This document shows positions 1-26,500 of a stretch of DNA of 60,087 nucleotides, piece by piece. Location of the stretch: the IMG/VR virus record IMGVR_UViG_3300045988_173323, one strand, 5' to 3'. Each line of letters opens with the position of its first letter. The stretch's first letter is position 1. The notes beneath the pieces are model-generated. The model was not told the origin of the DNA and made no database searches. It saw only the letters and a list, made by a program, of their open reading frames with translations. The position numbers and the translations under genes were made by a program. Origin of the DNA: a virus.

Positions 1-55
1 AACTTGTTACAATGGTATTATATCGCACCTTAGCTTAAAAGTCAAGCATTTTCGT

Positions 56-235
56 TTATTTTTTAAAATCTTTTAACTGCTGGTTTGTAGACAACTCTTT
101 AATTTTATATTTATGTAATCTGTTGTTTAAACAATAAATGCATGAACCATGGTTTCTGCACTGCATTGATATTGCTTTTGCTTTGCGGTATTCTTTTCTA
201 TGCTCTTTACCACTTTTAATTGCTTTGTCCATCAT
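56..235 (-). CDS. small Cys/His-rich protein (59 aa), absent from ORF track
   Basis: Manual translation of the minus strand gives MMDKAIKSGKEHRKEYRKAKAISMQCRNHGSCIYCLNNRLHKYKIKELSTNQQLKDFKK. An RBS (AGGTGG) lies 6 nt upstream. It sits directly downstream of the nucleotidase gene in the same operon. The C-x5-C-x2-C pattern suggests a small zinc-binding protein. Confidence 0.35.
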   Translation of the reverse strand: MMDKAIKSGKEHRKEYRKAKAISMQCRNHGSCIYCLNNRLHKYKIKELSTNQQLKDFKK

Positions 236-252
236 GTTTAACCACCTACTTT

Positions 253-726
253 CTATAAGAAATTTTTTAATACTTCCATGATATTGTTTACATCAAAACT
301 ATTTTTGCCCCACTCTTTTCTATTGCGTTCCTCGTCATCAAAAAGCCATCCCTTACAATCAACGACAGTACTTTTTGGTGTACCATAGTTTACAATTTTG
401 ATTTCATCCCATTCAATACTAGGCAAGTGTTTTTCAAGCCATGCAAGTTTTACACTTGTTACCGCCGTATTATAAGAAGCTGACCCGCTTTTACTTAACC
501 AGCTTACAATACCGATTCTATAGCCATTAGCTTGTAACTTGTGAAGCACTCTTGCGAAAGCTGAAAAATTGAAAAGCGGTTTTGCTACTTTGTATGGTGT
601 AGTATCTTCTTTTTCCAAATATGCTAACCAGTTTTCCACGCCGTAGAAATTAGCAAGTGTGCCGTCCATGTCAAAATAAATAGTTCCCTTTGTGTTCATC
701 ATTTCTTTAATTGTATTATTCATCAT
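253..726 (-). CDS. HAD-superfamily 5'(3')-deoxyribonucleotidase-like phosphatase
   Basis: The N-terminal FDMDGTLANF matches the DxDGT(L/V) HAD motif I of NT5C-type deoxyribonucleotidases. The size (157 aa) fits. The track start at 738 is a TTG; ATG-ATG at 724-726 with a GGGAAGGA RBS is more likely. Confidence 0.55.
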   Translation of the reverse strand: MMNNTIKEMMNTKGTIYFDMDGTLANFYGVENWLAYLEKEDTTPYKVAKPLFNFSAFARVLHKLQANGYRIGIVSWLSKSGSASYNTAVTSVKLAWLEKHLPSIEWDEIKIVNYGTPKSTVVDCKGWLFDDEERNRKEWGKNSFDVNNIMEVLKNFL

Positions 727-844
727 AATATCTACCAATCCTTCCCTTTTTGATTATCGCAAGTGCTTTGCGATTGACCGACCAATGATTATGTGAACCT
801 TGCTTTGTTTCTGTTTTTTAAGTTTAATGTCCTTCGACAAGTAT

Positions 845-873
845 ATATTACTACATCTTAGCGAAAAAGTCAA
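845..873 (-). promoter_or_regulatory. sigma70-like promoter (TTGACT-17-TAATAT) for the leftward nucleotidase operon
   Basis: Minus-strand reading: TTGACT, a 17-bp spacer, then TAATAT. It lies about 100 nt upstream of the ATG at 726. Confidence 0.4.
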
Positions 874-1170
874 ATTTATTTTTTATTGTGCAAAGTGATG
901 AAAATTTTACATAAAAATCATAGTATTTTTGTTAAAATGTACAAATGTAGAAAAATAATGCGGATTTAGGCAGATTTTTGTGCATTTTGCTATCTTAAAT
1001 ATCACATATTGTGTTTCTGCGTGTCAAAAAAGGTATGATTTTTTATTAAAATTTCGTCACTTTGCACAAGGTGTAGAAAATCTTAGCATTATTTTATTAA
1101 ATTTTGTACATTTTGTACACCATGTCAAAAAATGGGATTTTTTTAATTTATTTTTTGTGCAAATTGCCTA

Positions 1171-1200
1171 TTGACAAAAAGGTGCTAGATGTGGTATAAT
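1171..1200 (+). promoter_or_regulatory. near-consensus sigma70 promoter with extended -10 (TTGACA-17-TGgTATAAT), rightward
   Basis: TTGACA at 1171-1176 and TGGTATAAT at 1192-1200. No plus-strand CDS follows; the transcript would start about 1207 inside a GC hairpin. Confidence 0.55.
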
Positions 1201-1205
1201 AAAAT

Positions 1206-1227
1206 TTCGGGGTGCCCCGACCCCGAA
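1206..1227. other. GC-rich hairpin (TTCGGGG-N8-CCCCGAA) between two face-to-face promoters
   Basis: A 7-bp perfect stem with an 8-nt loop; locally >70% GC in a ~28% GC genome. It lies at +1 of the rightward promoter and about +12 to +33 of the leftward promoter. Confidence 0.5.
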
Positions 1228-1245
1228 CGGAATTCGTCTACTTCC

Positions 1246-1274
1246 ATTATAGCATACTCGAGCCACCTTGTCAA
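1246..1274 (-). promoter_or_regulatory. consensus sigma70 promoter (TTGACA-17-TATAAT), leftward, convergent with promoter 1171-1200
   Basis: Minus-strand reading: TTGACA (RC of 1269-1274), a 17-bp spacer, TATAAT (RC of 1246-1251). The -35 lies in the left arm of the 28-bp inverted repeat. Confidence 0.55.
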
Positions 1275-1339
1275 GAGAAAAAATGCACAAATTTTAGGAT
1301 AAAAATTTTGAAAAATTTGTGCATTTTTTCTCTTGACAA
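1268..1339. repeat. 28-bp perfect inverted repeat (TTGTCAAGAGAAAAAATGCACAAATTTT / reverse complement) separated by 16 bp
   Basis: Arms are at 1268-1295 and 1312-1339 and are exact reverse complements. Each arm carries a TTGACA -35 (of the divergent promoters) plus a TGCACAAA element. Confidence 0.9.
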
Positions 1340-1361
1340 AATGTCTCAACTATGCTATAAT
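1333..1361 (+). promoter_or_regulatory. consensus sigma70 promoter (TTGACA-17-TGcTATAAT), rightward, divergent from promoter 1246-1274
   Basis: TTGACA at 1333-1338 and TATAAT at 1356-1361 with TG at 1353-1354. The mirror arrangement matches the leftward promoter because of the inverted repeat. Confidence 0.55.
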
Positions 1362-1365
1362 GGAA

Positions 1366-1398
1366 GGCTCGGCTCGCATGGGCTGCTCGCGAGCCGGC
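1366..1398 (+). other. GC-rich structured leader (GGCTCGC...GCGAGCC; 10-bp palindrome GCTCGCGAGC) at +1 of the rightward promoter
   Basis: Seen directly in the sequence; about 75% GC over 33 nt. No ORF with an RBS follows. Confidence 0.4.
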
Positions 1399-1449
1399 TA
1401 TTATAACACATTTTCCGCGACTTGTCAACCCCTTTTAAAAAATTTTTTT

Positions 1450-1522
1450 ATTTTCGTCATTTTGCATAAAAATAAAATTCAGCATTTTGCACAAATTTTA
1501 TTTTCGTCATTTTGCATAAAAA
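1450..1522. repeat. two identical 23-bp direct repeats (ATTTTCGTCATTTTGCATAAAAA) exactly 50 bp apart
   Basis: Copies are at 1450-1472 and 1500-1522. A TTTTGCACA (DnaA-box-like) 9-mer lies between them at about 1486-1494. Confidence 0.85.
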
Positions 1523-1549
1523 AACAAAAGCCTAAATTATATAGGCTTT
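1514..1549 (-). terminator. rho-independent terminator ending the leftward early region
   Basis: A 7-bp stem AAAGCCT/AGGCTTT (1527-1549) is followed on the minus strand by a U-run (complement of A-rich 1516-1526). It lies 19 nt past the stop of CDS 1568-1774. Confidence 0.5.
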
Positions 1550-1567
1550 ATCATTACTCTTATTAAG

Positions 1568-1774
1568 TTATTTAGTATTACATTTACATTTTGCTTCTGT
1601 AATAATTTCTGTCTGATTAATTTCTGTATTGCTATTGTTATTAAAAAAATGGTCTGAGCCTTTTGCTAAAAAAACTATTATAGTTGCTAGAATCATTCCG
1701 ATTATAAGAAAACCAATTAGACCATTCAAATCTCTTCTAAATTCTTCATCTGTTGGGGCTTTTTCTTCTCTCAT
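1568..1774 (-). CDS. small membrane protein (68 aa, one central TM helix)
   Basis: ORF track entry; hydrophobic segment LIGFLIIGMILATIIVFLA. Confidence 0.5.
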   Translation of the reverse strand: MREEKAPTDEEFRRDLNGLIGFLIIGMILATIIVFLAKGSDHFFNNNSNTEINQTEIITEAKCKCNTK

Positions 1775-1820
1775 TTATTTTTTCCTTTTTTTAGAGTTGT
1801 GAGTTGTGAATTTCATGGAC

Positions 1821-2000
1821 TTAATTATTATTAAGTCCATGAAACTTTTTATTTTCTCGTTTCATTATTGTTTCATAAGCAATCTCTACTATTTCTTTTG
1901 AAATATTTTGATTTTCTGCTATTTTACAGAACATAATCACTGTATCATTTTCAAACCCTTTTACTTTAATTACATTATCCATCATCTCTGTTCTTGTCAT
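1821..2000 (-). CDS. small protein, paralog family A (59 aa from the MTRTEMMDNV start)
   Basis: The ORF track start at 2021 lies only about 5 nt from the predicted TSS. The ATG at 1998-2000 has an RBS (AAAGAGAGG) at correct spacing. It is paralogous to ORF 2160-2285. Confidence 0.5.
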   Translation of the reverse strand: MTRTEMMDNVIKVKGFENDTVIMFCKIAENQNISKEIVEIAYETIMKRENKKFHGLNNN

Positions 2001-2032
2001 TATTGCTTTCCTCTCTTTCATTTGATAATGTT

Positions 2033-2061
2033 ATTATACTATAAAGTCGGCTACTTGTCAA
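2033..2061 (-). promoter_or_regulatory. consensus sigma70 promoter (TTGACA-17-TATAAT), leftward, with conserved leader cassette
   Basis: Minus-strand reading: TTGACA (RC of 2056-2061), a 17-bp spacer, TATAAT (RC of 2033-2038). It is followed by the leader AACATTATCAAATGAAAGAGAGG, which is shared with the cassettes at 2921-2984 and 4366-4426. Confidence 0.55.
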
Positions 2062-2159
2062 CTACATTTTTTAAATGTTTAATTGCTTTTTCTCATTTTT
2101 ACTATCTTTTTCTTTTTTCTTTGTCGCATGAGTTTTTAAAACTCATGCGACTTTTACTA

Positions 2160-2285
2160 TTATTTTATTACTACTGCGTAAGCAAGTTCTACTGTTGTAT
2201 TTGAAACTTCACTTTCTGCTAATTTACAAAACCAGATTGTCAGTTCATCTTCAAAGCCTCTTGCTTTAATCACATTGTCCGTCAT
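2160..2285 (-). CDS. small protein, paralog family A (41 aa), absent from ORF track
   Basis: Manual translation gives MTDNVIKARGFEDELTIWFCKLAESEVSNTTVELAYAVVIK. It aligns with the core of the 1821-2000 product (MMDNVIKVKGFENDTVIMFCKIAENQNISKEIVEIAYETI). A TTGACA-17-TAATAT promoter lies upstream at about 2300-2330. Confidence 0.45.
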   Translation of the reverse strand: MTDNVIKARGFEDELTIWFCKLAESEVSNTTVELAYAVVIK

Positions 2286-2364
2286 TTCTTTTTTTACTGT
2301 TGTCTTTGACTGTTTTTATATTATCACAAAAGCTTGATTTTGTCAAGTTTTTGTGATATTTTTT

Positions 2365-2697
2365 TTACTTTTTTTGTTTAAAATTACTATGTAATTCAAT
2401 TACTTTACCGCAGTTGTCACAAGTCCAATAGTAAATTGTTCCGACATTTTTTATATAGTCTGCGTTTGCAAATCTCCATTTATTTCCGCACTCTACACAG
2501 TAGCCATTGTTCCAATTTACTTTATCGGATGATTGTTCAATTTTAATTAGCCATGTAAAAGTGCATCCTATTAAAAGAGCTAAGATAATGCCAATTACTG
2601 TTTTAATGATTCGATTTCCATTTTCATAAAAGATGTTTACCATAAATCCGCCAACGAATATTGTCATAAGAATCGTTACTAAAATTGTTCTAATCAT
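2365..2697 (-). CDS. membrane-anchored zinc-ribbon protein (110 aa)
   Basis: Two N-terminal hydrophobic helices, then C-x2-C ... C-x2-C (CVECGNKW...CDNCGKV). An RBS (GAAGGAA) lies upstream. Confidence 0.5.
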   Translation of the reverse strand: MIRTILVTILMTIFVGGFMVNIFYENGNRIIKTVIGIILALLIGCTFTWLIKIEQSSDKVNWNNGYCVECGNKWRFANADYIKNVGTIYYWTCDNCGKVIELHSNFKQKK

Positions 2698-2720
2698 TTT
2701 TTAATTCCTTCTTTCTTTAT

Positions 2721-2921
2721 TTATTTATTATTACTATCTCTCTTAACTATATTTATAATATCACATTTTTCGGTTTTTGTCAAGCCTTTTTCCTCTTTTA
2801 AAATTCTATTGATTTGGTTTTTAATATCCTTCAAATCTTCAAGACTGCAATAAACTTTATCACCCCAACCGCCTTTAATTGTATAAGGATAACTCTTATC
2901 ATCACTTTTTTCTACTGTCAT
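2721..2921 (-). CDS. hypothetical protein (66 aa from the MTVEKSDD start)
   Basis: The track start at 2984 lies inside the -35 of its own promoter. The ATG at 2919-2921 has a GAGAGAGG RBS and the conserved leader. Confidence 0.5.
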   Translation of the reverse strand: MTVEKSDDKSYPYTIKGGWGDKVYCSLEDLKDIKNQINRILKEEKGLTKTEKCDIINIVKRDSNNK

Positions 2922-2955
2922 TTTTATCAACCTCTCTCTTTCATTTGATAATGTT

Positions 2956-2984
2956 ATTATACTATAGGTCTTAACAAAAGTCAA
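2956..2984 (-). promoter_or_regulatory. consensus sigma70 promoter (TTGACT-17-TATAAT), leftward, with conserved leader cassette
   Basis: Minus-strand reading: TTGACT, a 17-bp spacer, TATAAT. The -35 is embedded in the imperfect palindrome AGGTCTTGAC-TTTT-GTTAAGACCT. Confidence 0.55.
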
Positions 2985-3002
2985 GACCTATTTTATTTTT
3001 TC

Positions 3003-3404
3003 TCAAATTTTTGTTATTCCTCTGTCTTTCAAATATTCACAAAAACTATCAGAGTCAAGCATTTTCGCAATGTCTTTCATTGAAACGTTCATTTTGTTAT
3101 ACACACAACGTACTTCAATAGGTTTAAATTTTTTTTCTGTAATAGCTGTTGATAAAGAATCTTCTACATTGCTTAATCGAACAACTCTTTTTTTAAAGAA
3201 ATTTTTTGAAATTTCAGCATTTATAAATAAACCTTTTTCAACTAAATTAATCAGTTCGTCAAAAGTGTTGATTGTAAAGTTCCTTGTCTTTGCTTCTGCT
3301 TCTTCTGGGGTAAGGTATCTTACGTGTTCCCAGATACTTGTATCAACAAAGTTTTTTCGACCCTCTATTCTGTACTTGAATCTATAATCATAAACTTCTT
3401 TCAT
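3003..3404 (-). CDS. hypothetical protein (133 aa from the MKEVYDYRF start)
   Basis: ORF track entry. The track start is a TTG; the ATG at 3402-3404 is preceded by AGAAAGAGG. Confidence 0.5.
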   Translation of the reverse strand: MKEVYDYRFKYRIEGRKNFVDTSIWEHVRYLTPEEAEAKTRNFTINTFDELINLVEKGLFINAEISKNFFKKRVVRLSNVEDSLSTAITEKKFKPIEVRCVYNKMNVSMKDIAKMLDSDSFCEYLKDRGITKI

Positions 3405-3437
3405 TTTTATCAACCTCTTTCTTTATTTTCTATATTT

Positions 3438-3466
3438 ATTATACAGTATCTATTGACTTTTGTCAA
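3438..3466 (-). promoter_or_regulatory. consensus sigma70 promoter (TTGACA-17-TATAAT), leftward
   Basis: Minus-strand reading: TTGACA (RC of 3461-3466), a 17-bp spacer, TATAAT (RC of 3438-3443). The flank has the same AAAATAGGTCTTGAC upstream element as the promoter at 2956-2984. Confidence 0.5.
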
Positions 3467-3481
3467 GACCTATTTTATTTT

Positions 3482-3742
3482 TTATTTTGGAAGGATAACC
3501 TCAGCTTCGACAGGTACTACTTTCTCAGATGCCATAAAAGCTTTCATATATCCCGTAGCAAGATTAACCGCAATGAATCTACCTTTTTGTCTTTCCAAGA
3601 AAAAACCGCTATTCCTATCAATAATCATGTACAACCCGATTTCATCAATACCACCTCTTTGACTAATACTGAAAAAAGTTTTTCCTATTGTCAAGTCATT
3701 GATGCAAATTTCTGTTGCTTTTTTATCATAGTTGATTTTCAT
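3482..3742 (-). CDS. hypothetical protein (86 aa)
   Basis: ORF track entry; an AGAGAGG RBS lies 8 nt upstream. Confidence 0.5.
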   Translation of the reverse strand: MKINYDKKATEICINDLTIGKTFFSISQRGGIDEIGLYMIIDRNSGFFLERQKGRFIAVNLATGYMKAFMASEKVVPVEAEVILPK

Positions 3743-3760
3743 TTTAATTACCTCTCTTTC

Positions 3761-3943
3761 TTATTTAATTTCTTTAAAGATACTTTCATCTGTGGCATTA
3801 CATAACTTATTATTTACGTTATACTTAGCATAAAGCCACTTTTTACAATCCCATTTTAGCGGACAATGATAACAAGTTGTAGTAAAAGCCGTGGTTTCCA
3901 TCGGAATTGCAAGAAATATCTTTTTAAGTTTTTTAGTTATCAT
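3761..3943 (-). CDS. small Cys-rich protein (60 aa; CYHCPLKWDCKKW)
   Basis: ORF track entry; an AAGGAGGAG RBS lies upstream. Confidence 0.45.
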   Translation of the reverse strand: MITKKLKKIFLAIPMETTAFTTTCYHCPLKWDCKKWLYAKYNVNNKLCNATDESIFKEIK

Positions 3944-3976
3944 ATTATTTTTTTCTCCTTCCTTTTAACTATCTTT

Positions 3977-4005
3977 ATAATACCATATTAAAATTATTTT
4001 GTCAA
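3977..4005 (-). promoter_or_regulatory. sigma70-like promoter (TTGACA-17-TATTAT), leftward
   Basis: Minus-strand reading: TTGACA (RC of 4000-4005), then a -10 with 5 of 6 matches. Confidence 0.35.
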
Positions 4006-4084
4006 TCCCCTTTTATAAAAAATTATAAAAAAGGAAGATTTTTTATCTTCCTTTTACTTTTGTTTTATTCTTGTTTTTTTATTT

Positions 4085-4231
4085 TTATCTTAATAATCTT
4101 AATAAATAGTTATTTTCATGCTCTTTCAAAAAAGCGTTAATTTCTTCTATTGTTTCAGCGTAAATCTCGCCTGTCTCAGTGTCTACAAGCATCAATTTTT
4201 TACTTCCTAAAAATAATCCTAAATCTAACAT
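4085..4231 (-). CDS. small protein (48 aa), absent from ORF track
   Basis: Manual translation gives MLDLGLFLGSKKLMLVDTETGEIYAETIEEINAFLKEHENNYLLRLLR; an RBS (AATGGAGGG) lies upstream. Confidence 0.35.
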   Translation of the reverse strand: MLDLGLFLGSKKLMLVDTETGEIYAETIEEINAFLKEHENNYLLRLLR

Positions 4232-4245
4232 ATTTAAGCCCTCCA

Positions 4246-4365
4246 TTAAGAAATTTTTACCAGATAACCGTTTGTATTTTTTTCTACTGAAAAAATGTAT
4301 TGATTATCTTTTAAGTATTTTTTTACAGTTTCAAATGCTTTTCGAGTTGTCAGTAACATTGTCAT
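4246..4365 (-). CDS. small protein (39 aa), absent from ORF track
   Basis: Manual translation gives MTMLLTTRKAFETVKKYLKDNQYIFSVEKNTNGYLVKIS. It is preceded by the conserved leader cassette (AAATGAAAGAGAGG). Confidence 0.35.
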   Translation of the reverse strand: MTMLLTTRKAFETVKKYLKDNQYIFSVEKNTNGYLVKIS

Positions 4366-4397
4366 ATCCCTTTACCTCTCTTTCATTTGATAATACT

Positions 4398-4426
4398 ATG
4401 ATACTATATTTCTTTGCTTTTGTCAA
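4398..4426 (-). promoter_or_regulatory. sigma70 promoter (TTGACA-17-TATCAT), leftward, with conserved leader cassette
   Basis: Third copy of the module ...TAT(A/C)ATAGTATTATCAAATGAAAGAGAGG. Confidence 0.5.
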
Positions 4427-4543
4427 GCATTTTAGGAAAATTTTCTAAAGATTTTTTTATGCGGATTTCCGCTGGAAAAACCTGAACTTAAGGAGATTAT
4501 AGGCGAACCGACTCCAGAACTATCAAGTTCGGGAGTCCCTTTT

Positions 4544-4720
4544 TTATTTAAGGAATGATTCTAAAGCCTTGTAGCATAAATCAGCGTTTTCTTTATCTTT
4601 TATGCTAGTACCTTTAGAAAAGTCATTCATAGCGGCTGTCAGTAGTTCTGGTACTGAAATAAATTCAAATTCAAATACCAACTGTAAAGCCGCCAATTCA
4701 TTAAGATTGACTTTTTTCAT
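4544..4720 (-). CDS. small protein (58 aa), absent from ORF track
   Basis: Manual translation gives MKKVNLNELAALQLVFEFEFISVPELLTAAMNDFSKGTSIKDKENADLCYKALESFLK; an RBS (GGAGATAAG) lies upstream. Confidence 0.4.
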   Translation of the reverse strand: MKKVNLNELAALQLVFEFEFISVPELLTAAMNDFSKGTSIKDKENADLCYKALESFLK

Positions 4721-4769
4721 CGGTTCTTTCTTATCTCCTTTTTAAATATTTTATTTTCTTTACATTATT

Positions 4770-4798
4770 ATTATATCAAATTTTTTAATAAAAATCAA
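4770..4798 (-). promoter_or_regulatory. sigma70-like promoter (TTGATT-17-TATAAT), leftward
   Basis: Seen on the minus strand upstream of ORF 4544-4720. Confidence 0.4.
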
Positions 4799-4814
4799 AA
4801 AAGATACTTTATCT

Positions 4815-4854
4815 AAACAAGCAAAGAAAAGGGCTGAACTTATTCCGCCCTTTT
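4815..4854 (-). terminator. putative rho-independent terminator after the lipoprotein-like gene
   Basis: A 7-bp stem AAAGGGC/GCCCTTT with a 12-nt loop, followed by a U-rich tract on the minus strand. Confidence 0.35.
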
Positions 4855-4866
4855 CCCGCTTCCCCG

Positions 4867-5133
4867 CTATCCTATTATCTCTGCATTTGTAATAATATCA
4901 TCTGTCACGTTGTCAGTCCCTAAAGAATCCATGTATAATTTAACTCTATCTTTTGCTTTAAAACCGTCTCCATAGAAACTCCAAACATGTCCGTAGCTAT
5001 CCATAACCACCACCTCATCATTAAAAGAGCTAATCACTTTAGCTTCTCTTGTATACTTAGTAAAGCTACCAAAACCGCAAATACTACTTAAAACTGCACT
5101 TACTGCTAATCCTAAAATCACCTTTTTCATCAT
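4867..5133 (-). CDS. secreted or lipoprotein-like small protein (88 aa from the MMKKVILG start)
   Basis: An N-terminal signal-peptide-like segment ends ...AVLSSICGF, a possible lipobox Cys. The track start is a TTG; ATG-ATG is preceded by AGAAAGAGG. Confidence 0.5.
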   Translation of the reverse strand: MMKKVILGLAVSAVLSSICGFGSFTKYTREAKVISSFNDEVVVMDSYGHVWSFYGDGFKAKDRVKLYMDSLGTDNVTDDIITNAEIIG

Positions 5134-5135
5134 AT

Positions 5136-5414
5136 CTAACTCCAACCTCTTTCTTTCTTAATCTTTTCGTATCTTTCTTTTGCTTCTTTTTCAATCTTCT
5201 TTTTGTCATACATTCTAATTTTCATTCTAGTATATCCGTCTCTTTTTAAACACCAACGTTCTGTTTTACGTTGTACTACTATTTTATCAATAGCTCTTTG
5301 CTGTACCTCTTGCTTATGAGTGTTGTAATATTTGATACTCTCAATTTCTAATAAAGTACTTATTGGTCTGTACTTATTGGTTACACTAAACAAAGTGCAT
5401 TGAATTGTTATCAT
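5136..5414 (-). CDS. basic (K/R-rich) hypothetical protein (92 aa), possibly nucleic-acid binding
   Basis: ORF track entry. An AGAGAGGTGA RBS lies upstream. It is the first gene after the promoter at 5443-5471. Confidence 0.5.
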   Translation of the reverse strand: MITIQCTLFSVTNKYRPISTLLEIESIKYYNTHKQEVQQRAIDKIVVQRKTERWCLKRDGYTRMKIRMYDKKKIEKEAKERYEKIKKERGWS

Positions 5415-5442
5415 CTTCTTATCACCTCTCTTTTCAAGTATT

Positions 5443-5471
5443 ATTATACTACCTTATTATACCATTGTCAA
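5443..5471 (-). promoter_or_regulatory. consensus sigma70 promoter (TTGACA-17-TATAAT), leftward, first promoter of the early region
   Basis: Minus-strand reading: TTGACA (RC of 5466-5471), a 17-bp spacer, TATAAT (RC of 5443-5448). Confidence 0.5.
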
Positions 5472-5489
5472 GCGTTTATTTATAGTATT

Positions 5490-5880
5490 TTTATTCGTCT
5501 TAATGCATATTTATTTATGTATATTTATTCACATTGCTAGTTAGCTTTACATATTTTATATTTATATCCTTTTATAAATTTTATAAATTAAATTATAAAA
5601 TAAAATATAATATATCAGTTATTGCATTGTTTTACTTAATATTTATTTAAGCATATCTTTCTTATTATACTATTATGTTATTCTATTATAACTATTATAA
5701 GACAAGAGTCTTACGTTGAATACACTATTATTATTATTGTAACACTTCTATAAAAGTAATTACATAATATAAAATATTATTATACTTATACTTTGTATGT
5801 ATTGTTATAGTATAATATTATTATACTGTTATTATTATTATTATTATTATCTTTCCTTTATCTTAAGCTTAATCTCTCAT
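5490..5880. repeat. about 390 bp of extreme AT-rich low-complexity non-coding DNA with an (ATT)7 microsatellite (5831-5850)
   Basis: Seen directly in the sequence. No ORF is present. A small palindrome TAAGAC-AAGA-GTCTTA lies at about 5698-5713. Confidence 0.6.
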
Positions 5881-5899
5881 TATAACACCTTTAGCTCAT

Positions 5900-6170
5900 T
5901 CTGTCAATAGACATTTTACACAATTTTTTCTTTTGATTTTCGTGCAGATTGACCATTGACATTTCTTGTCTATTGACATTTTGTACAAAAATCAAATTAT
6001 ATTTTTGTATACTTTTACCATTGACAGGACTTGTCAATAGACATAATGCACAAAATTTTCCTTGCATTTTTGTGCAATTTTACCTATTGACAAACTCATT
6101 TTAGGAAAATATCTTTGTGCATTTTTTACAAAAATTTAGCCAAAAATTTGTGCATTTTGTCTATTGACAG
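5900..6170. promoter_or_regulatory. array of at least 5 copies of the near-palindromic 12-mer TGTC(TATT/AATA)GACA flanked by TTGTGCA / TGCACAAA elements, in both orientations
   Basis: Copies are at 5903-5914, 5967-5978, 6032-6043, 6084-6092 (half site) and 6158-6169. ACCATTGACA appears at 5952 and 6017. The same motif family occurs in the 980-1340 control region. Confidence 0.6.
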
Positions 6171-6177
6171 GCTTCTC

Positions 6178-6223
6178 GGAGCGTTGCGAAAGTATACGCT
6201 CCGATGGTAGATGGCAAGCTACC
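6178..6223. other. pair of GC-rich hairpins (GGAGCG-N13-CGCTCC; GGTAG-N8-CTACC) immediately after the last repeat copy
   Basis: Seen directly in the sequence; locally about 55% GC versus a ~28% background. Confidence 0.45.
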
Positions 6224-6507
6224 AATAGCCAATAAAATTCTAATCTTCTTGCTTTATTTTAATTATTTAAAGAATTTATTTTATTAGTTTAACTCTTTCT
6301 CCTCTTTATTTAAAATAATGTGTTCAAAATCCTTCTGAACAAAAAACATATCCTCTTTGGAAAATGATTTGAAAAATTATTTGTTAGGCGGTGTTTTGTT
6401 GCTTCTTACTCAAAAGAAAAGACCAATCTACAGACCATACCCAAACATAATACCCGGGCTATATTAAAGGATTAAAATTTTTTACTTTTATAAAAAGATA
6501 GTGTTCT

Positions 6508-6645
6508 CCACAATTCTCTCTCCAAAAAAATTTTTAAATCTAAAAATTGAAGAAAATGAAGAAGAAAAAATTGAAATAATTCTCCTTCCAAAAATTTTAG
6601 AATCTAAGAATCTAAAATAAAAACTTTAAGGATTCTAAATATTAA
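6508..6645. repeat. iteron-like direct and inverted repeats (CCAAAAA(A)TTTT(T)A-AATCTAA; AGAATCTA x2; GGATTCT)
   Basis: Units are at about 6512-6545 and 6583-6612; AGAATCTAAGAATCTAAAA at 6599-6617; the inverted partner GGATTCTAAA at 6631-6640. Confidence 0.45.
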
Positions 6646-6727
6646 AAAATTTTCTTCTTCTTCTTCTTTAAAAAATGCGTGAGTGTCAAGTTAATCTCCG
6701 AAATACGTTTAAAAGCTTAGTAATCAT

Positions 6728-6952
6728 CTAAAACATCGCGTTTGCCTGTTCATAATATTTTAATTCTTGAATCCAAGCGATTGGAATTACCATTTCCGCT
6801 TTAGCGTATCTTTCTATAGCATCCATGATTTCATGTCTCCTAGTATTGATTATTTCTAATCTAAAAGTTTCACGCGGAACCAATCCTGCAACTGCAACTG
6901 CAACTGTTTTCTTTGCTTTCCCTGTTTCGTTATTCATAGTCATATTACTCAT
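6728..6952 (-). CDS. hypothetical protein (74 aa)
   Basis: ORF track entry. A strong RBS (AGGAGGAAAA) lies upstream. It is translationally coupled downstream of the DUF2493-like gene. Confidence 0.5.
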   Translation of the reverse strand: MSNMTMNNETGKAKKTVAVAVAGLVPRETFRLEIINTRRHEIMDAIERYAKAEMVIPIAWIQELKYYEQANAMF

Positions 6953-6964
6953 ATTATTTTCCTC

Positions 6965-7309
6965 CTATTTTACTATTTTAATTACTTTACCATGTTTTCC
7001 GCTCATTTTCATTTTCATAATAATCTTTCTAATTATTGCGTCTTTTCCATCATAAAAAAGTATAGCAAAATCAATATTATCTACCATTTTCTGAATTAAT
7101 TTATCTATATTGCGATCAAATATATATTCAATAGGAGCACCATTATTTTCTGCCCATATTTTTCCAATAGACTCCGAGAGCTTCTTCTCCGTATTCCCGC
7201 AAACAACAGTAAACAAGTAACACTGCGTTTCACAGATAAAATCTTCCATAGCTGCGGAGACTAGGCGATTATCCGCGAAACCGCGACTTCCAAGAATACT
7301 AATTCTCAT
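6965..7309 (-). CDS. DUF2493-like (SLOG/LOG-type Rossmann) phage protein
   Basis: The pattern MRISILGSRGFAD...TVVCG...W...P...LFYDGKD...GK.VKIV recalls the DUF2493 signature (MRVxVxGSRxF.D...VV.GGA...W...P...FPGG..GT...G..V). The call is by recall only. Confidence 0.45.
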   Translation of the reverse strand: MRISILGSRGFADNRLVSAAMEDFICETQCYLFTVVCGNTEKKLSESIGKIWAENNGAPIEYIFDRNIDKLIQKMVDNIDFAILFYDGKDAIIRKIIMKMKMSGKHGKVIKIVK

Positions 7310-7390
7310 CTCTTTTTCCTCTTGTTTTATTTATAAAATAATTATAACAAAAATTTTTTAAAAAATCCAATTAAAGTGCTTTAATCAAAT

Positions 7391-7419
7391 TTGACAAAAA
7401 AATTTTTTTGTGGTATAAT
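7391..7419 (+). promoter_or_regulatory. near-consensus sigma70 promoter with extended -10 (TTGACA-17-TGgTATAAT) driving the rightward structural operon
   Basis: TTGACA at 7391-7396 and TGGTATAAT at 7411-7419. The RBS AAAGGAGAAATT lies before the ATG at 7447. The region is divergent from gene 6965-7309. Confidence 0.6.
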
Positions 7420-7446
7420 ATAATTGTAAATTAGAAAGGAGAAATT

Positions 7447-8604
7447 ATGACACCAATAATAATAGAAGATGAAGCTTTTGAGGAGAATATTTTAGAAGAA
7501 GAAAAAACAACAGAAAAACAAATCAAAGAAGAAAATATACAAACTACTATTAAATTAGATTATTCTTTAGAGACTCCTGAAGAGCGGAATGAATTAGTTA
7601 AAAAAATTATAAATAATACTCCTTCTGAGCAATTAACACCTAGATATTTAGAAATATTGTCAGATTACATTATTTTTGCTATGGATAAACAAGAGCGGAA
7701 ACAAAAGCAAATATTAACTGATAATCACATGGTCACAGTTAACAAAAGAGAAACTTCTTTTGAAGGATTAGTTGGTCGCTTAGAGAATGGCGAAGATGGC
7801 ATTTATAATATGATTGCTAATGATAAGAATATTATCTTTACACCTAAATTTCAAATAACTCAACAAGATATTGCGGAAATCCCCGAGTTAAAACAACTTG
7901 TAGACGCGATTGCGGAAGTTGAAAAAGCTGAGAAAAAAGCAGTTGGTAAAAAGAAATTTTTATTAAAAAAGCAACTTATTGCTATGAGACAAGATCAATA
8001 TGTAATTAGAAGTGCATATAAGCCGCCAATTTATTGTATGAACGCAATTAAAAGTTTTAGCAAAATTGATTTTGATGAAAATGTTTCTATTAGCGGAGAT
8101 GATGAAATTGAAGATAATAGCTTAGTTTCTTTTTTTAATCCTAAGCACGTATCTGCGTTATTATGTAACTATTCCCGCCTAAAAGAAGATGCATGGGGAA
8201 AATTCTATAGTGATTCATACTTTTTAATGGAAGATTTAGATACATTAATAGAAAAGACTTTAAGAGACAGCTATCCAATGTATTATGACCTCTTGATTTA
8301 TAAAATAGATGGAAAACAAAATCTTGAAATTCAAAGCCTATTGAATCAAAAGCATAATGTAAAACATTCAGTGGAATATATATCATCTTTGTGGCGGAAT
8401 AAGATACCTAAGCTATTGTCAGAGCAAGCTCAGGAAGACTACTTAATTTGGTATTATACGACTCAGAAGAAGGGAAAATGGAAAAAATGTTCCCGCTGTG
8501 GGGAAATCAAATTAGCTCATAATAAATTTTTTTCAAAGAATAAGACAAGCAAAGATCATTTTTACAGTATATGTAAATGTTGTCGAAATAAGAAAAATAA
8601 GTAA
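7447..8604 (+). CDS. hypothetical acidic protein with a C-terminal C-x2-C...C-x2-C zinc ribbon (385 aa)
   Basis: ORF track entry. The C-terminus reads CSRCGEIKLAHNKFF...ICKCCRNKKNK. It is the first gene of the late operon. Confidence 0.55.
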   Translation: MTPIIIEDEAFEENILEEEKTTEKQIKEENIQTTIKLDYSLETPEERNELVKKIINNTPSEQLTPRYLEILSDYIIFAMDKQERKQKQILTDNHMVTVNKRETSFEGLVGRLENGEDGIYNMIANDKNIIFTPKFQITQQDIAEIPELKQLVDAIAEVEKAEKKAVGKKKFLLKKQLIAMRQDQYVIRSAYKPPIYCMNAIKSFSKIDFDENVSISGDDEIEDNSLVSFFNPKHVSALLCNYSRLKEDAWGKFYSDSYFLMEDLDTLIEKTLRDSYPMYYDLLIYKIDGKQNLEIQSLLNQKHNVKHSVEYISSLWRNKIPKLLSEQAQEDYLIWYYTTQKKGKWKKCSRCGEIKLAHNKFFSKNKTSKDHFYSICKCCRNKKNK

Positions 8605-23506: not shown

Positions 23507-26500
23507 ATGGCGGCTACAAATCGTATTGATTTTACAGTTGGCTTTAATACAGATCAAAGCGGTTTATCAAGTATTAAGAAGGCATTAGAAGAAATTCAAA
23601 AAATGACTTCTGGTGATTTGATGAGCTTAAATAAAGGAATGGATTTAAGTGAAGCCAATAGCAGATTATCTCAAATAAAAGAATCTGCTAGCCAAGTTCA
23701 AAAAGCGTTAGAAAAAGCTTTTAACGCGGATTTAGGAACATTAAATGTATCTAAATTTAACAATGAATTAAAAAATTTAGATATAAATAAAATTTACAAT
23801 GATTTTAATAGTGCGGGTTCGGCAGGACAAACCGCTTTTAAAAATATGACAACTCAGATTTTAACTACTAATATGCAGTTAAAACAAACTCATAGCTTCT
23901 TAGAGAATATGGCTACAACTCTATCCAATACTATTAAATGGAATATTGCATCTGGAGCCATGAATGCATTAACTAATAACGTTCAACAAGCAGTTAATTA
24001 TGTTGAAAAATTAGATACTTCATTAAATAATATTAGAATTGTAACTGGCAAATCTGCGGAAGAAATGCGTGATTTCGCGGAATCTGCGAGTCAAACCGCT
24101 CAAGAGCTATCCGCGAGTACAAGAGATATAACTGAAGGAGCTTTAATTTATTATCAACAGGGTGATACAGATGAAGATGCTCTTGCTAAAGCTGAGATTA
24201 CTCAGAAAACCGCGAATGTATCTCAGATTAGCTCAGAACAGGCTGCGGAATATTTAACTGCGGTTTGGAATGGTTATAAAGTAGCTAATGAAGCTGCGGC
24301 TGAAGGAATGGACGTTTATGAAAAATATGTAGACAAGTTAGCGGCTGTAGCAGCTACAACTGCGTCAGACTTAGCTGAATCTTCTATGGCTATTTCTAAA
24401 GTAGCTTCCGCAGCAAGTTCTATGGGCGTTGATTTTGACCAATTAAATGCTCAGATTGCGACTATTATTTCTGTTACCCGCCAAGCACCAGAATCAGTAG
24501 GTACAGCCCTAAAGACAATTTATGCTCGTATGGGTGATCTAGCTGTTGATGGTGTTGATGAATTTGGAGTTTCTCTTGGTGAAGTTTCTGGAAAGATGAA
24601 AACAATGGGCATTGACATCTTAGATGAGAATGGTCATCTAAAAGAGATGGGAAATGTTATTGAAGAAGTAGCAGGTAAGTGGAGTACTTGGACAGACGAA
24701 CAAAGACAAGCGGCAGCAGTTGCAATCGCAGGTAAGAGACAGTATAATAACTTAATTGCTTTATTTGATAACTGGGATATGTATACTGATGCTTTAGATA
24801 CTTCTAAAAATGCATTGGGAACTCTTGAAGAACAACAGGACATCTATTCTGAAAGAACAGAAGCTCATATCCAAAGAATGAGAACTACTTTCGAGGATTT
24901 ATATGATTCTTTATTAAAGCCAGAAGCCATTAATAAAGTTGTCGACGGAATTACTTTTGTTGTAGATAAAATTGCAACATTAGTTGACAATATCGGCGGT
25001 GGCAAGACTGTTCTTGCTGAGCTAGGATCTTTAGGTGTAAGAGTATTTAGTAAACAAATCGCTGGTGGTATTTCTACAACTATAGCTAATTTTAAAAATG
25101 TAAAATCTAATGCTGAACAACTTAATGCTCAATTAGAGATTTTACAACAGTATAAAGGATTATCTGCGTTAGATGAAGATACTAAAGAATTAGTAAATAT
25201 GAAGCAAGAGATTGTGGATTTAGGATCTGTTGCTACTACTGAACAACAGAACATTGCTAACGGTTTTATTGAACAAATAAATGCTTTGCAAAATCAAAAG
25301 AAACAGTTAGAAGAGAATGAGGAAGCTGCAAAAAATCTTTATAAGGCTTTAACTAATGAAGAATTAGACTTAGATAGCCTTAGAGGAAAGGGCGAAGAAG
25401 CAGAAAAAACAGATACATATAAAGAAGTTCAGAAGCAAGTAGCTGAGACTCAGAAGCAGTATAAAAGTTTGAATAAAGAAGCTTCTAATTATGCTGGGGC
25501 TTTGACTTTAGCTACTTTTAATCAAAGACAAGCTTCTAAAGATAGTTCAAAGCAAGAAGAGGCAATTAAATCTTATGAAGCTTTAACTATCGCTGTAAAA
25601 AAATATAATGATGAAGTAAAAAAAATAGTTTCTTCAAGTCCAGAAGTCGCAAGTGCTTATGAAAATTTTAATAAGAAATTAAAAGAGTATAGTGAACTCA
25701 CAGGAAATGCTGAAAAATCGGTAGGAGAATTAATTGCGACTTACCCAGAATTAAGCAAAGCTTTCAAAGAGGTAACAGAAGTAAGTAAAGATTATGCTAG
25801 CCAAGCGGCAAGTGATGCACAGAAGGTCATGAAAACTGCACAAGATGTCGCTGCAGGGATAGGGGAAAAAGTAAAAGAAAAATTAGATGAGTCTCGCTCT
25901 GCATGGAAAAGCTTTATAGATGATGTAAGAAATACTGCGGTTATTCAATCAGCCCTAGACATTGCGGGTTCTATTGGAGAAATAGGTTCTTCTATAGTTA
26001 GTTTAAAAGGAATATGGGATGTTTTTTCAGATGATTCTTTATCTATAACAGAAAAATTAGGACAATCATTTACTGTTTTGCTTTCTACTTTACCACTTCT
26101 CATAGATGGGATTCAAGGACTTCGAGCAGGTCTTATAACTTTGGCTCAAAATGCAATTCCAGCTTTAGCTGGCTCTTCTTTGACTGCGTGGGAAGCGATT
26201 GGAGCATTATTTTCAGCCTCTTGGATTGGTTGGGCTGCGGCGGCAGTAGGTGCGATTGCACTAGTAGTATTCGCTATAGATCATTTTACGGTAAGTGCAA
26301 AAGAGGCAAAAGAAGCTTTAGAGAGTCAATTTGAAGAGTATGAAAAAGCTCAACAGGAAGTAGATGAATTAAATTCTAAGTTAGAAACAACACAAGAAAG
26401 ATTAAAAGAATTATATCAAATTTCTCCAGATGAGCTTACTCTTGCACAAAAAGAGGAACTAAAAACCTTAGAAGCCCAAAATGCGGCGTTGACAACACAG

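Follow-up and report, generated by a model that had tools for sequence, protein, structure and literature searches.

The stretch of DNA examined in this study (the window) comprises 60,087 nucleotides of the virus record IMGVR_UViG_3300045988_173323, in which a noncoding stretch of 830 bp (~740 to 1567) contains two tandem copies of a composite cassette. Each cassette consists of two consensus promoters of the sigma-A/sigma-70 type that are opposed across a GC-rich hairpin, and such cassettes were found at the ends of early operons in a family of large, related gut phages. A perfect inverted repeat at positions 1268 to 1339, highlighted in a first-pass annotation of the sequence, is the back-to-back joint of the two copies of this conserved noncoding element. 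We consider that the cassette may control transcription in cis, through mutually exclusive binding of RNA polymerase at the facing promoters and production of an antisense RNA capped by a hairpin, and we assign a probability of roughly 45% to this reading, which was drawn from sequence comparisons.

Two promoter-hairpin cassettes in a noncoding region

Four perfect promoters were present within 260 bp and were designated P1 (+), P2 (-), P3 (+) and P4 (-); all had a TG-extended -10 hexamer (Table 1). Perfect TTGACA-N16-18-TATAAT sites occurred 11 times in the window, compared with an expectation of 0.07. P1 and P2 form one convergent pair and P3 and P4 another, with -10 hexamers 45 nt and 38 nt apart, respectively, and with one GC-rich hairpin each. 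P2 has a dual role, being face-to-face with P1 and back-to-back, at exactly 58 bp, with P3. Both P1 and P3 have the arrangement RGGAT-N15-TTTGTGCA-N9-TTGACA, in which TTTGTGCA is referred to below as the box.

Hairpins 1 and 2 lie in two of the six GC-rich islands of the window, the other four being located inside long open reading frames (ORFs), and the 41-nt island around hairpin 2 (1361 to 1401) folded at -20.6 kcal/mol. The initial region of P1 is A/T-rich, AAAATT(TC), and is followed by hairpin 1. On the minus strand (1227 to 1206), hairpin 1 is followed by a U-run (ATTTTATTAT), which gives it the layout of an intrinsic terminator for RNA from P2, and it scored as a terminator on this strand; the P2 RNA is predicted to be ~40 nt long and to end at the hairpin. 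Hairpin 2 had this layout, with a U-run directly after the stem-loop, on neither strand. No credible ORF or ribosome-binding site was detected downstream of P1 to P4 within the cassettes.

A family of cassettes in phage contigs

An exact 24-mer from the right arm of the repeat (TTTGTGCATTTTTTCTCTTGACAA) was found in 14 viral contigs, and a convergent-pair pattern (TTGACA-N17-TATAAT, 20 to 50 nt, ATTATA-N17-TGTCAA) matched at least 120 viral loci. The same pattern matched at least 120 loci, mostly of Clostridia, in bacterial and archaeal genome contigs. All family figures (43 loci and 115 units) rest on the matches listed in these pattern scans, with at least 120 loci in each. Among the viral matches listed, 24 of 83 nonredundant pairs had a GC-rich insert, and all 24 inserts folded at -10 kcal/mol or better; the box was present in 19 of these 24 pairs and in none of the pairs with a non-GC (AT-rich) insert. 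Among the bacterial and archaeal matches listed, a GC-rich insert was detected in none of 118 nonredundant convergent pairs and the box in 2; in appearance, these pairs are ordinary regulatory regions of the face-to-face kind whose operators are A/T-rich. Among the matches listed in both scans, the GC-hairpin cassette was confined to the phage set.

In distant relatives, a boxed promoter was found opposite a second consensus promoter across other GC hairpins. The cassette loci had homologous neighbor genes in the same orientation, with an NT5C-like protein encoded in 19 loci and with recurrent families of ~240 aa and ~133 aa, and on the basis of these common neighbors the loci appear to form one phage family. 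The G+C content of the flanking DNA ranged from 25% to 50%, and the contigs ranged from tens of kilobases to 197 kb. When the conserved neighboring proteins were compared with Pfam, the NT5C-like nucleotidase alone scored, just below threshold, and no DNA-binding domain was found. DNA similarity searches with positions 800 to 1600 and 1 to 8000 against 50,697 phage records left the cassette unmatched and returned only short promoter patches and a neighboring gene.

Fixed distances between the parts of the cassette

A scan of the 43 family loci for GC-rich perfect stems with an adjacent promoter (at most one mismatch) yielded 115 nonredundant units. The distance from the -10 hexamer to the hairpin was 2 to 4 nt in 50 of the 115 units (termed PL type) and 7 to 9 nt in 53 (PR type), and the hairpin was exactly 27 nt long in 63. 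Among 23 distinct 27-nt hairpins, 98.9% of the cells were paired and five of the eight pairs had changed on both sides. Pairing as high was reached in none of 500 shuffles, and slid controls gave 26 to 42%. A set of 24 inserts that had been selected by their promoters alone folded as well as the hairpins preselected by stem. Hairpin sequences differed completely between units of one genome.

The gap between the box and the -35 hexamer was 9 to 10 nt (61 cases) or 19 to 20 nt (11 cases), with no other value observed, and 37 units had no box. An RGGA motif was present 31 to 33 nt upstream of the -35 hexamer in 53 of 57 PR-type promoters. The first nucleotides after the -10 hexamer were GGAAATTT(C) in PR-type promoters, whereas those of PL-type promoters were G/C-rich, mostly with G at positions 5 and 6. 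The complete PR-type layout is RGGAT-N15-TTTGTGCA-N9-TTGACA-N17-TGnTATAAT-GGAAATTT-hairpin.

The two types also differed in their orientation with respect to the flanking ORFs. PR-type promoters were on the opposite strand in 29 cases and on the same strand in 1 (27 of the 57 were unclear), while PL-type promoters were on the same strand in 20 cases and on the opposite strand in 7. A facing partner promoter was detected for 34 of 57 PR-type and 38 of 52 PL-type promoters. A canonical terminator was located within 260 nt downstream of the PR-type hairpin in 11 of 57 units, and a T-run followed the hairpin in 4 of 57 units in the PR direction and in 11 of 52 in the PL direction. In addition, a third promoter, which points in the gene direction and lies back-to-back with the PR-type promoter, was found upstream in 40 of 59 cases; P2, the example in the window, doubles as the gene-direction partner of P1. 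The -35 hexamers of these divergent pairs were 58 to 59 bp apart in 21 of the 40, with smaller groups at 46 to 48, 66 to 68 and 80 to 81 bp, approximately one or two helical turns from the mode. The number of cassettes per locus was high, with six promoter-plus-hairpin units in the 10-kb locus L091 and three to four in loci L106, L050 and L078, which are 8 to 15 kb long.

The inverted repeat and its boxes

The first-pass annotation had described two divergent consensus promoters built on a 28-bp perfect inverted repeat. The repeat was confirmed, its arms (1268 to 1295 and 1312 to 1339) being complementary at 28 of 28 positions around a 16-nt center (1296 to 1311), and a chance origin is unlikely, as had been supposed; it is the longest perfect inverted repeat of the window, and the maxima in 40 dinucleotide-preserving shuffles were 11 to 15 nt. 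With imperfect pairing it can be extended to arms of 55 nt (1241 to 1295 and 1312 to 1366; 91% complementarity), and as single-stranded DNA the segment from 1236 to 1371 folded at -44.2 kcal/mol (z = -13.6). There is one -35 hexamer per arm (TGTCAA at 1269 to 1274 and TTGACA at 1333 to 1338), and both promoters match the consensus at 12 of 12 positions. The interval originally assigned to the pair included the -10 hexamer of P3 but left that of P2 (1246 to 1251) outside, and although the divergent pair had been recognized, the convergent consensus partner that each of its promoters has across a GC hairpin had been missed. The back-to-back geometry, at 58 bp in the window, is the mode of the family.

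The symmetric elements of the two arms are the 8-mer TGCACAAA (1284 to 1291) and its complement TTTGTGCA (1316 to 1323), which form the half-sites of a dyad with a 24-nt gap that recurs in most family modules. This 8-mer occurred 13 times in the window compared with an expectation of 2.2, and 9 of the 13 occurrences were in clusters at 977 to 1495 and 6047 to 6154, which bracket the early-gene block. These boxes are not a product of chance, as they occupy the same fixed positions across the whole phage family. The likeness to a DnaA box that had been suggested for them was not upheld: TTTGTGCAT agreed with the DnaA box TTATNCACA at 4 of 9 positions in a direct sequence comparison, and no DnaA box was found in the sequence. 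The center of the repeat is itself asymmetric, as the RGGAT motif inside it belongs to P3 only.

Repression of both promoters at once by a dimeric regulator had been proposed for the repeat. In its general form, this explanation invokes a dimeric or tetrameric protein on the TGCACAAA and TTTGTGCA half-sites, which are 32 bp (three helical turns) apart from start to start, and joint control of the divergent promoters. The dyad is conserved in the family, with a distance of 24 nt between the boxes in most of the modules that were inspected by eye, and a pattern scan detected a distal half-site at 24 or 14 nt in several PR-type units. The 58- to 59-bp spacing of 21 of 40 divergent pairs is also consistent with a shared operator, as is the specificity of the boxes for these promoters, given that the ordinary early promoters of the same phages have none and that 2 of the 118 bacterial pairs among the matches listed have one. 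However, the boxes lie at approximately -52 to -45, ending 9 to 10 or 19 to 20 nt upstream of the -35 hexamer, outside the core promoter elements; they overlap no -35 hexamer, -10 hexamer or start site, which does not support the bridging and occlusion of two promoters by one dimer. Single boxes also precede promoters that lack a divergent partner, the two gap lengths shift the half-sites relative to each other while their conservation is kept, and noncomplementary box variants were found within one module (TGCACAAA and TTTGTGAG in locus L090, for example). No candidate regulator gene was apparent, and the conserved neighbors had no Pfam DNA-binding domain. On balance, a shared operator is unlikely.

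The restriction of the gap to 9 to 10 or 19 to 20 nt is instead the signature of a face-of-helix upstream element, either UP-like or of an activator type. Because the gaps are quantized at 9 and 19 to 20 nt and the divergent partners are spaced by helical turns, the TGCACAAA boxes may be helically phased upstream promoter elements, which would be bound by the alpha subunits of RNA polymerase or by another factor. Matches to CodY- and Spo0A-type sites were considered and rejected as too weak; TGNCGAA occurred 3 times in 850 to 1560 and 15 times elsewhere, with no overall enrichment.

Variants of the box also occur pairwise in direct repeats at 1446 to 1527 (TTTTCGTCATTTTGCATAA) and 1041 to 1131 (TTTTGTACATTTTGTACA), in units 25 and 50 nt apart with T-tracts phased at ~9 to 10 nt. 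These repeats could be iteron-like or could represent intrinsically curved DNA, and a TTCGTCA variant within them is compatible with the Spo0A-box pattern TGNCGAA.

Loss of the perfect symmetry in close relatives

Three loci, L003, L004 and L009, were 92 to 93% identical to the window over positions 1 to 1495 and had the same four promoters, all of them invariant. In all three, an insertion of 10 to 11 nt (TTTTTTTCAA) is present between the -35 hexamer of P2 and its box, which lengthens that gap to 19 to 20 nt. Perfect symmetry is thus dispensable for the conservation of the promoters. The upstream regions of P2 and P3 are mirrored in the window because both carry a box 9 nt from the -35 hexamer and, since the insertion is present in three relatives, the perfect 28-nt symmetry is a lineage-specific accident of an indel of one helical turn. 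P2 and P3 have 12 of 17 spacer positions in common and an identical TATGCTATAATGGAAG, a likeness that would fit gene conversion or duplication in inverted orientation. A perfect palindrome, however striking, can be a by-product of back-to-back promoters of the same class and not a binding site that requires symmetry. Pairing of the boxes at the RNA level, as a 28-bp stem of the RNase III type, was also rejected as the conserved feature; the variants elsewhere are noncompensatory, and in the closest relatives the stem is not continuous.

Changes among the close relatives were concentrated in the hairpin inserts. Hairpin 2 was inverted in L003 relative to its flanks, had lost its loop in L004 and had loop substitutions in L009. 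An exact flip of the P3/P4 hairpin with identical flanks was seen when L003 (6513 to 6537) was compared with L009 (7030 to 7056) and with the window (1370 to 1396), while L004 lacked 13 nt of loop and arm. The flip and the loss look like palindrome-mediated template switching and show that the orientation of the loop is neutral. As judged from these comparisons, the promoters are tightly constrained and the hairpin is constrained as a structure only.

An origin or unwinding element was the second function that had been envisaged for the repeat. Divergent transcription would underwind the 58-bp, 86% A+T spacer or extrude a cruciform, and GC-rich R-loops would prime synthesis. Several features are compatible with this: the A+T-rich spacer between divergent consensus promoters, the fold of the long repeat at -44 kcal/mol in single-stranded form and the iteron-like direct repeats nearby (1446 to 1527). 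Transcription-activated origins are also known from lambda, T4, T7 and ColE1. The cassettes, however, are present several times per genome, in relatives at roughly one per 1 to 3 kb and at most about one per 1 to 2 kb, unlike DnaA/oriC-type origins, which have a single or a few initiation sites per replicon. The repeat is perfect in the window only; the closest relatives have it broken by the 10- to 11-nt insertion, and for the other family members symmetry is limited to the boxes, ~8 to 11 nt long and ~24 nt apart, so that the potential for a cruciform is not conserved. Convergent transcription would overwind the GC palindromes and disfavor extrusion, DnaA boxes are absent and the GC skew merely follows gene orientation. 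An origin function was therefore considered very improbable.

Proposed transcription control by facing promoters

The preferred reading, that of a cis-acting transcription-control cassette, rests on the geometry of the facing promoters. If transcription starts ~7 nt after the -10 hexamer, the start sites of P3 and P4 are predicted to be ~25 bp apart and those of P1 and P2 ~32 bp apart. A bacterial open complex protects DNA from about -55 to +20. With facing start sites at this distance, two polymerases could not bind together, and the promoters of a pair would compete. The PR-type hairpin begins 7 to 9 nt after the -10 hexamer, and, from predicted start sites, the PR-type RNA would start 0 to 3 nt before the complete GC hairpin and the PL-type RNA inside its 5' arm. 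Hairpins at the 5' end stabilize bacterial RNAs against 5'-end-dependent decay. The PR-type RNA would cross the partner promoter in antisense orientation and continue, in most cases, into the 3' end of the upstream operon. In the window, the cassettes would set or insulate transcription between the variable immediate-early block (1568 to 5900) and the genes from 253 to 738 onward, by means of promoter occlusion, head-on interference and a stable antisense RNA. Repression by interference has been documented for convergent promoters (PMC6593788) and for engineered antisense promoters at the 3' ends of genes (PMC4731013).

Several points weigh against this reading. The loci were gathered with exact patterns that demand perfect promoters or the box, which biases promoter quality in the set; the covariation count admitted only hairpins preselected for a perfect stem of 6 bp or more; crude ORF lengths served to assign gene orientation; and all start sites were predicted from the position of the -10 hexamer. 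There is no obvious gain in constitutive consensus promoters that oppose the early operons of the phage itself, and with a gene-direction promoter beside each PR-type promoter the downstream genes would not simply be switched off. P2 is atypical in that it is 17 to 19 nt from the hairpin and its RNA would terminate at once. Furthermore, conservation of the 27-nt hairpin, the RGGAT motif and the box exceeds the needs of plain interference, which hints at a specific factor or an RNA product.

The PR-type units may alternatively be genes for small structured RNAs, each with a 27-nt GC hairpin as a cap, or for pairs of complementary RNAs. Either kind would work in trans, perhaps as an antisense timer by which early mRNAs are shut off or as a decoy aimed at a host nuclease or defense protein. 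The tight conservation of hairpin length and of hairpin position relative to the predicted start fits such RNAs, as does the predicted ~40-nt RNA of P2. Some variants resemble complete genes for small RNAs, with a terminator on each strand (the L001 group, which has two hairpins each with a U-run; L006; and positions 499 to 570 of phage Phass-1). Against this, the hairpins of one genome are wholly different, which leaves no common sequence-specific target or ligand, and most PR-type units have no nearby terminator. In Rfam searches, the whole window gave no match at gathering thresholds; plant and animal microRNA-precursor models matched 700 to 1700 at permissive E values, and these hits were rejected as spurious, as they were below the gathering scores and reflected the long hairpin. 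We consider an RNA product unlikely. A CRISPR-repeat mimic (an RNA anti-CRISPR) was rejected, given that the hairpin sequences differ within one genome, and a scan for tRNA and tmRNA genes detected none. Hairpin promoters of the N4 type for a virion RNA polymerase were also rejected; the promoters have a plain -35/-10 consensus, and an ORF of 2843 aa in the window is the counterpart of the giant tape-measure proteins of the Phass-1 group (PMC10607447).

A more far-reaching form of the transcription-control reading, in our estimate improbable although worth stating, is that the cassette is a control device, hitherto undescribed, that is used throughout a family of large Firmicute phages of the gut. 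A superconsensus antisense promoter (TGCACAAATTT-CGGGAT-N14-AAATTTGTGCA-N9--35 plus the 27-nt GC cap hairpin) would be locked face-to-face with a gene-direction promoter and would act as a switch or timer at the level of the polymerase. In one version, stable antisense RNAs would progressively shut off the immediate-early operons. In another, the state of the host would be sensed through the choice between an A/U-starting and a G-starting promoter, similar to the sensing of initiating nucleoside triphosphates in Firmicutes. If the preferred reading holds, the cassette would represent compact, portable transcription logic without a dedicated protein, made from two mutually exclusive promoters, one hairpin and helical phasing, and reused many times per genome by a family of uncultured phages of ~80 to 200 kb. 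It would explain how immediate-early operons are delimited and timed. In phage contigs from metagenomes, the sequence signature could serve to locate early regions and to assign the orientation of genes, and the parts could be of use in the synthetic biology of Firmicutes as very strong promoters, insulators and 5' stabilizers.

Possible gene shuffling at the edge of the cassettes

The early genes at 1500 to 4027 were nonhomologous in L003, L009 and L004, relatives that are otherwise 88 to 93% identical to the window. One homology break (~1495 to 1825) was located at the edge of the cassettes, and L003 was 92% identical over 1 to 1495. Within the variable block, short promoter and leader patches recurred, as at 1994 to 2043, 2934 to 2999 and 4371 to 4433, each with several matches. 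This pattern resembles cassette-like gene shuffling between repeated promoters, as described for promoter-early stem-loop (PeSL) elements, which are composite promoter-terminator motifs of T4-type phages (PMC2839356, PMC4122927).

The units could accordingly be viewed as homology patches that shuffle early-gene cassettes, with the repeat as the scar of an inverted duplication of P3. The homology break at the cassette edge, where L003 changes from 92% identity (1 to 1495) to nonhomologous sequence (1500 to 4027) that shares only short repeated promoter-leader patches, is consistent with this, and the 12 of 17 shared spacer positions of P2 and P3 with the identical TATGCTATAATGGAAG suggest duplication or gene conversion. 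PeSLs, moreover, combine a stem-loop with near-consensus early promoters in plastic early regions (PMC4122927). The breakpoint patches, however, are ordinary early promoters and not hairpin cassettes, and the quantized distances, stem covariation and fixed gene orientation point to selection on function and not just on homology. Recombination of the PeSL kind is most improbable as the reason for the cassette; it may be an additional consequence of the repeated promoters, and it does not explain the quantized geometry.

Comparison with known systems

Literature searches that covered hairpins combined with convergent or face-to-face promoters, the sequence of the box, and antisense promoters of early regions in phages yielded no description of the cassette or its boxes; its parts are known, and they stand in an arrangement for which no description was found. 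PeSLs are similar in being repeated, conserved noncoding composites. They occur in large virulent phages, in an early region that is plastic, and each combines a host-type promoter (near-perfect TTGACA-N17-TATAAT) with a stem-loop and an A/T-rich upstream part. The two cassettes at the end of the early block, and up to six units per 10 kb in relatives, likewise form a repeated motif in a variable early region. In a PeSL, however, the stem-loop precedes a single promoter, and this promoter is followed by a Shine-Dalgarno sequence and a start codon, whereas the cassette has two opposed promoters, one of them antisense, with the hairpin downstream of both (2 to 4 or 7 to 9 nt after the -10 hexamer), dedicated boxes (TTTGTGCA and RGGAT) and no ORF after P1 to P4.

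Face-to-face and antisense promoters are known from temperate phages, including Pe/Pc of phage P2, pR/pL of 186, Pant/Psar of P22 and oop of lambda. These resemble the cassette in their close convergent promoters, overlapping transcripts, interference of a strong promoter with the opposing one and short antisense RNA against an operon end or leader; phage 186 and transcriptional interference are also treated in PMC6593788. With -10 hexamers 45 and 38 nt apart, the facing promoters of the window would also give transcripts with overlapping 5' ends, as judged from predicted starts. The pairs of the temperate phages, however, drive repressor and antirepressor genes, have known repressors, occur once per genome and have no common GC hairpin. 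The cassette, in contrast, is repeated in a phage that appears virulent and encodes no protein in its transcripts, and its PR-type promoters face the 3' ends of opposite-strand genes at 29:1.

The host-takeover module of Bacillus phage SPO1 consists of many small early genes, each with a near-consensus sigma-A promoter and a terminator, and is similar to the small minus-strand genes at 1568 to 5900, which follow perfect or near-perfect TTGACA/TATAAT promoters. We know of no description of a face-to-face promoter-hairpin cassette or TTTGTGCA box for SPO1, with whose sequence no comparison was made. Stabilizing 5'-terminal stem-loops are present in the ompA, ermC and aprE leaders; like these, the PR-type RNA has a stable hairpin a few nucleotides from its (predicted) 5' end, although in the cassette one palindrome is shared by two opposed promoters and the RNA would be noncoding and antisense. 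Single-strand hairpin promoters are known from conjugative plasmids and from the minus origins of filamentous phages (e.g., Frpo and the pLS20 family). The 55-nt arms of the window include both hexamers, and a complete -35/-10 promoter would similarly be rebuilt in a single-stranded hairpin. Unlike the Frpo/sso type, however, the window belongs to a double-stranded DNA (dsDNA) phage, and an insertion breaks the long repeat in the closest relatives. The other members of the family do not have it, and the more distant ones share short boxes only.

Genomic setting and other features

The window is part of a large tailed dsDNA phage with genes for terminase, portal protein, DNA polymerase, an anaerobic ribonucleotide reductase and its own sigma factor, and its 60 kb probably represent part of a larger genome. 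G+C content is 30%, and the GC skew merely tracks gene orientation. The portal protein shares 39% identity with its counterpart in phage Phass-1 and ~32% with the portals of Enterococcus phages of ~140 kb, and it has distant kin in large Bacillus phages. Giant tape-measure proteins, typical of siphovirus morphology, and Clostridia as suggested hosts have been reported for Phass-1 (PMC10607447). Two giant ORFs are present in the structural module of the window, at 23507 to 32038 (2843 aa) and 32133 to 36746 (1537 aa), and the first matches in size the ~3150-aa tape-measure proteins of the Phass-1 group. The sigma factor gene (7391 to 8604; PHROG 5767, E = 4.5e-52) has its own perfect TTGACA-N17-TGgTATAAT promoter, which suggests an early phase that depends on host polymerase, followed by a phase that depends on the phage sigma factor.

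The cassette block directly follows the terminator of the early block, in which the small minus-strand genes (1568 to 5900) mostly have a consensus promoter each, and is upstream of the NT5C-like deoxyribonucleotidase gene (253 to 738). The coordinates of the features are given in Table 1.

Table 1. Features of the cassette block and of the far end of the early-gene block
Feature	Position	Strand	Remarks
GGGAT motif of P1	1134-1138	+	15 nt upstream of box, 32 nt upstream of -35; RGGAT-N15-TTTGTRYA at 1134
TTTGTGCA box of P1	1154-1161	+	9 nt upstream of -35
P1	1171-1200	+	TTGACA-N18-TGgTATAAT; PR type; against genes; distance to hairpin d = 5
GC-rich hairpin 1 (TTCGGGGTGCCCCGACCCCGAA)	1206-1227	.	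33-nt GC island 1204-1236 folds at -14.1 kcal/mol
P2	1246-1274 (1274-1246)	-	TTGACA-N17-TGcTATAAT; gene direction; left promoter of the first-pass annotation; invariant in relatives
28/28 inverted repeat with 16-nt center	1268-1339	.	imperfect extension 1241-1366 at 91%
P2 box (TGCACAAA on + strand)	1284-1291	-	9 nt from -35; gap 19-20 nt in relatives
AGGAT motif of P3	1296-1300	+	asymmetric element within repeat center
TTTGTGCA box of P3	1316-1323	+	9 nt upstream of -35
P3	1333-1361	+	TTGACA-N17-TGcTATAAT; PR type; 8 nt from hairpin 2; against genes; right promoter of the first-pass annotation
GC-rich hairpin 2 (CGGCTCGC-ATGGGCTGCTC-GCGAGCCG)	1370-1396	.	27 nt, 8-bp stem, 11-nt loop
P4	1400-1428 (1428-1400)	-	TTGACA-N17-TGtTATAAT; PL type; 3 nt from hairpin 2; gene direction
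Direct repeats of box-like units (TTTTCGTCATTTTGCATAA)	1446-1527	.	spaced 25 and 50 nt, between P4 and terminator
Intrinsic terminator of minus-strand early-gene block	1527-1549 (1549-1527)	-	
First early promoter	5879-5924	-	perfect (5907-5879); box variant ATTGTGTA at 5917-5924, 9 nt upstream of -35
Second box cluster	5940-6169	both	boxes 9-10 nt upstream of (C)TATTGACA -35-like hexamers, mostly without a good -10
Further 27-nt GC hairpin CGGAGCG-N13-CGCTCCG	6177-6203	.	7 nt after box and -35 (6147-6169); no -10 hexamer

GC-containing palindromes of 6 bp cluster in and around the two cassettes, at 1224 to 1229, 1257 to 1262, 1387 to 1392 and 1392 to 1397. They correspond to EcoRI (GAATTC), XhoI (CTCGAG), NruI (TCGCGA) and NaeI (GCCGGC) sites, and GGCCGGCC, CCGCGG and GCGCGC were seen in related hairpins. 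This clustering is probably a mere consequence of the GC-rich palindromic stems.

Cultured relatives were also inspected for units of this kind. One PR-like promoter-plus-hairpin unit and no facing pair were detected in the first 20 kb of Phass-1. In this phage (L132, 326 to 570), divergent near-consensus promoters at 354 to 326 (-) and 499 to 527 (+) are separated by TTGCACAAAG, TTTCGTCAAAG and AATCCCAC motifs, and the plus-strand promoter, which is PR-like and has no facing partner, is followed by a GC hairpin and a U-run (499 to 570), with a predicted RNA of ~45 nt. The first 80 kb of Enterococcus phage EF1 contained no unit, save one promoter and GC hairpin with different boxes in a repeat-rich noncoding region. 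In this region of 800 bp (L254, 13700 to 14500; 63.7 to 64.5 kb of the EF1 record), a different box (AAAATAACAC / GTTATTTTAT) is repeated many times, and a promoter-like site has its -10 hexamer 2 nt upstream of a GC hairpin (CGCTCGCCAGCGAGCG), after which comes GCCGAAAAATAAC. The region may represent a counterpart of the cassette that uses other boxes.

Downstream of the cassettes of loci L050, L098, L106, L025 and L090, ordinary early promoters were found with a common purine-rich leader (ATGTCAAGAGGGGAAC / ATGTTCCAAGAGGGAA). This leader belongs to the relatives with higher G+C content, and some of the units have no obvious ORF after it. It is reminiscent of the polypurine 5' stabilizer of Bacillus phage SP82.

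At the far end of the early block, the second box cluster was 95% conserved in the relatives and includes two overlapping, opposed -35 hexamers (TTGACAGGACTTGTCAA, ~6022 to 6038). Its last part (6147 to 6203), also 95% conserved in three relatives, comprises a TTTGTGCA box, a -35 hexamer (6164 to 6169) and a 27-nt hairpin, followed by a small hairpin (GGTAG...CTACC), and looks like a PR-type unit minus the spacer and the -10 hexamer. Between the early block and the genes at 6700 to 7320 there is a very A/T-rich noncoding region of ~460 bp (6240 to 6700), in which runs of purines (gaagaaaatgaagaagaaaaaattgaaataa) and repeats of the motif aaaatttt(t)a(g)aatctaa are present and which is a possible origin or packaging site.

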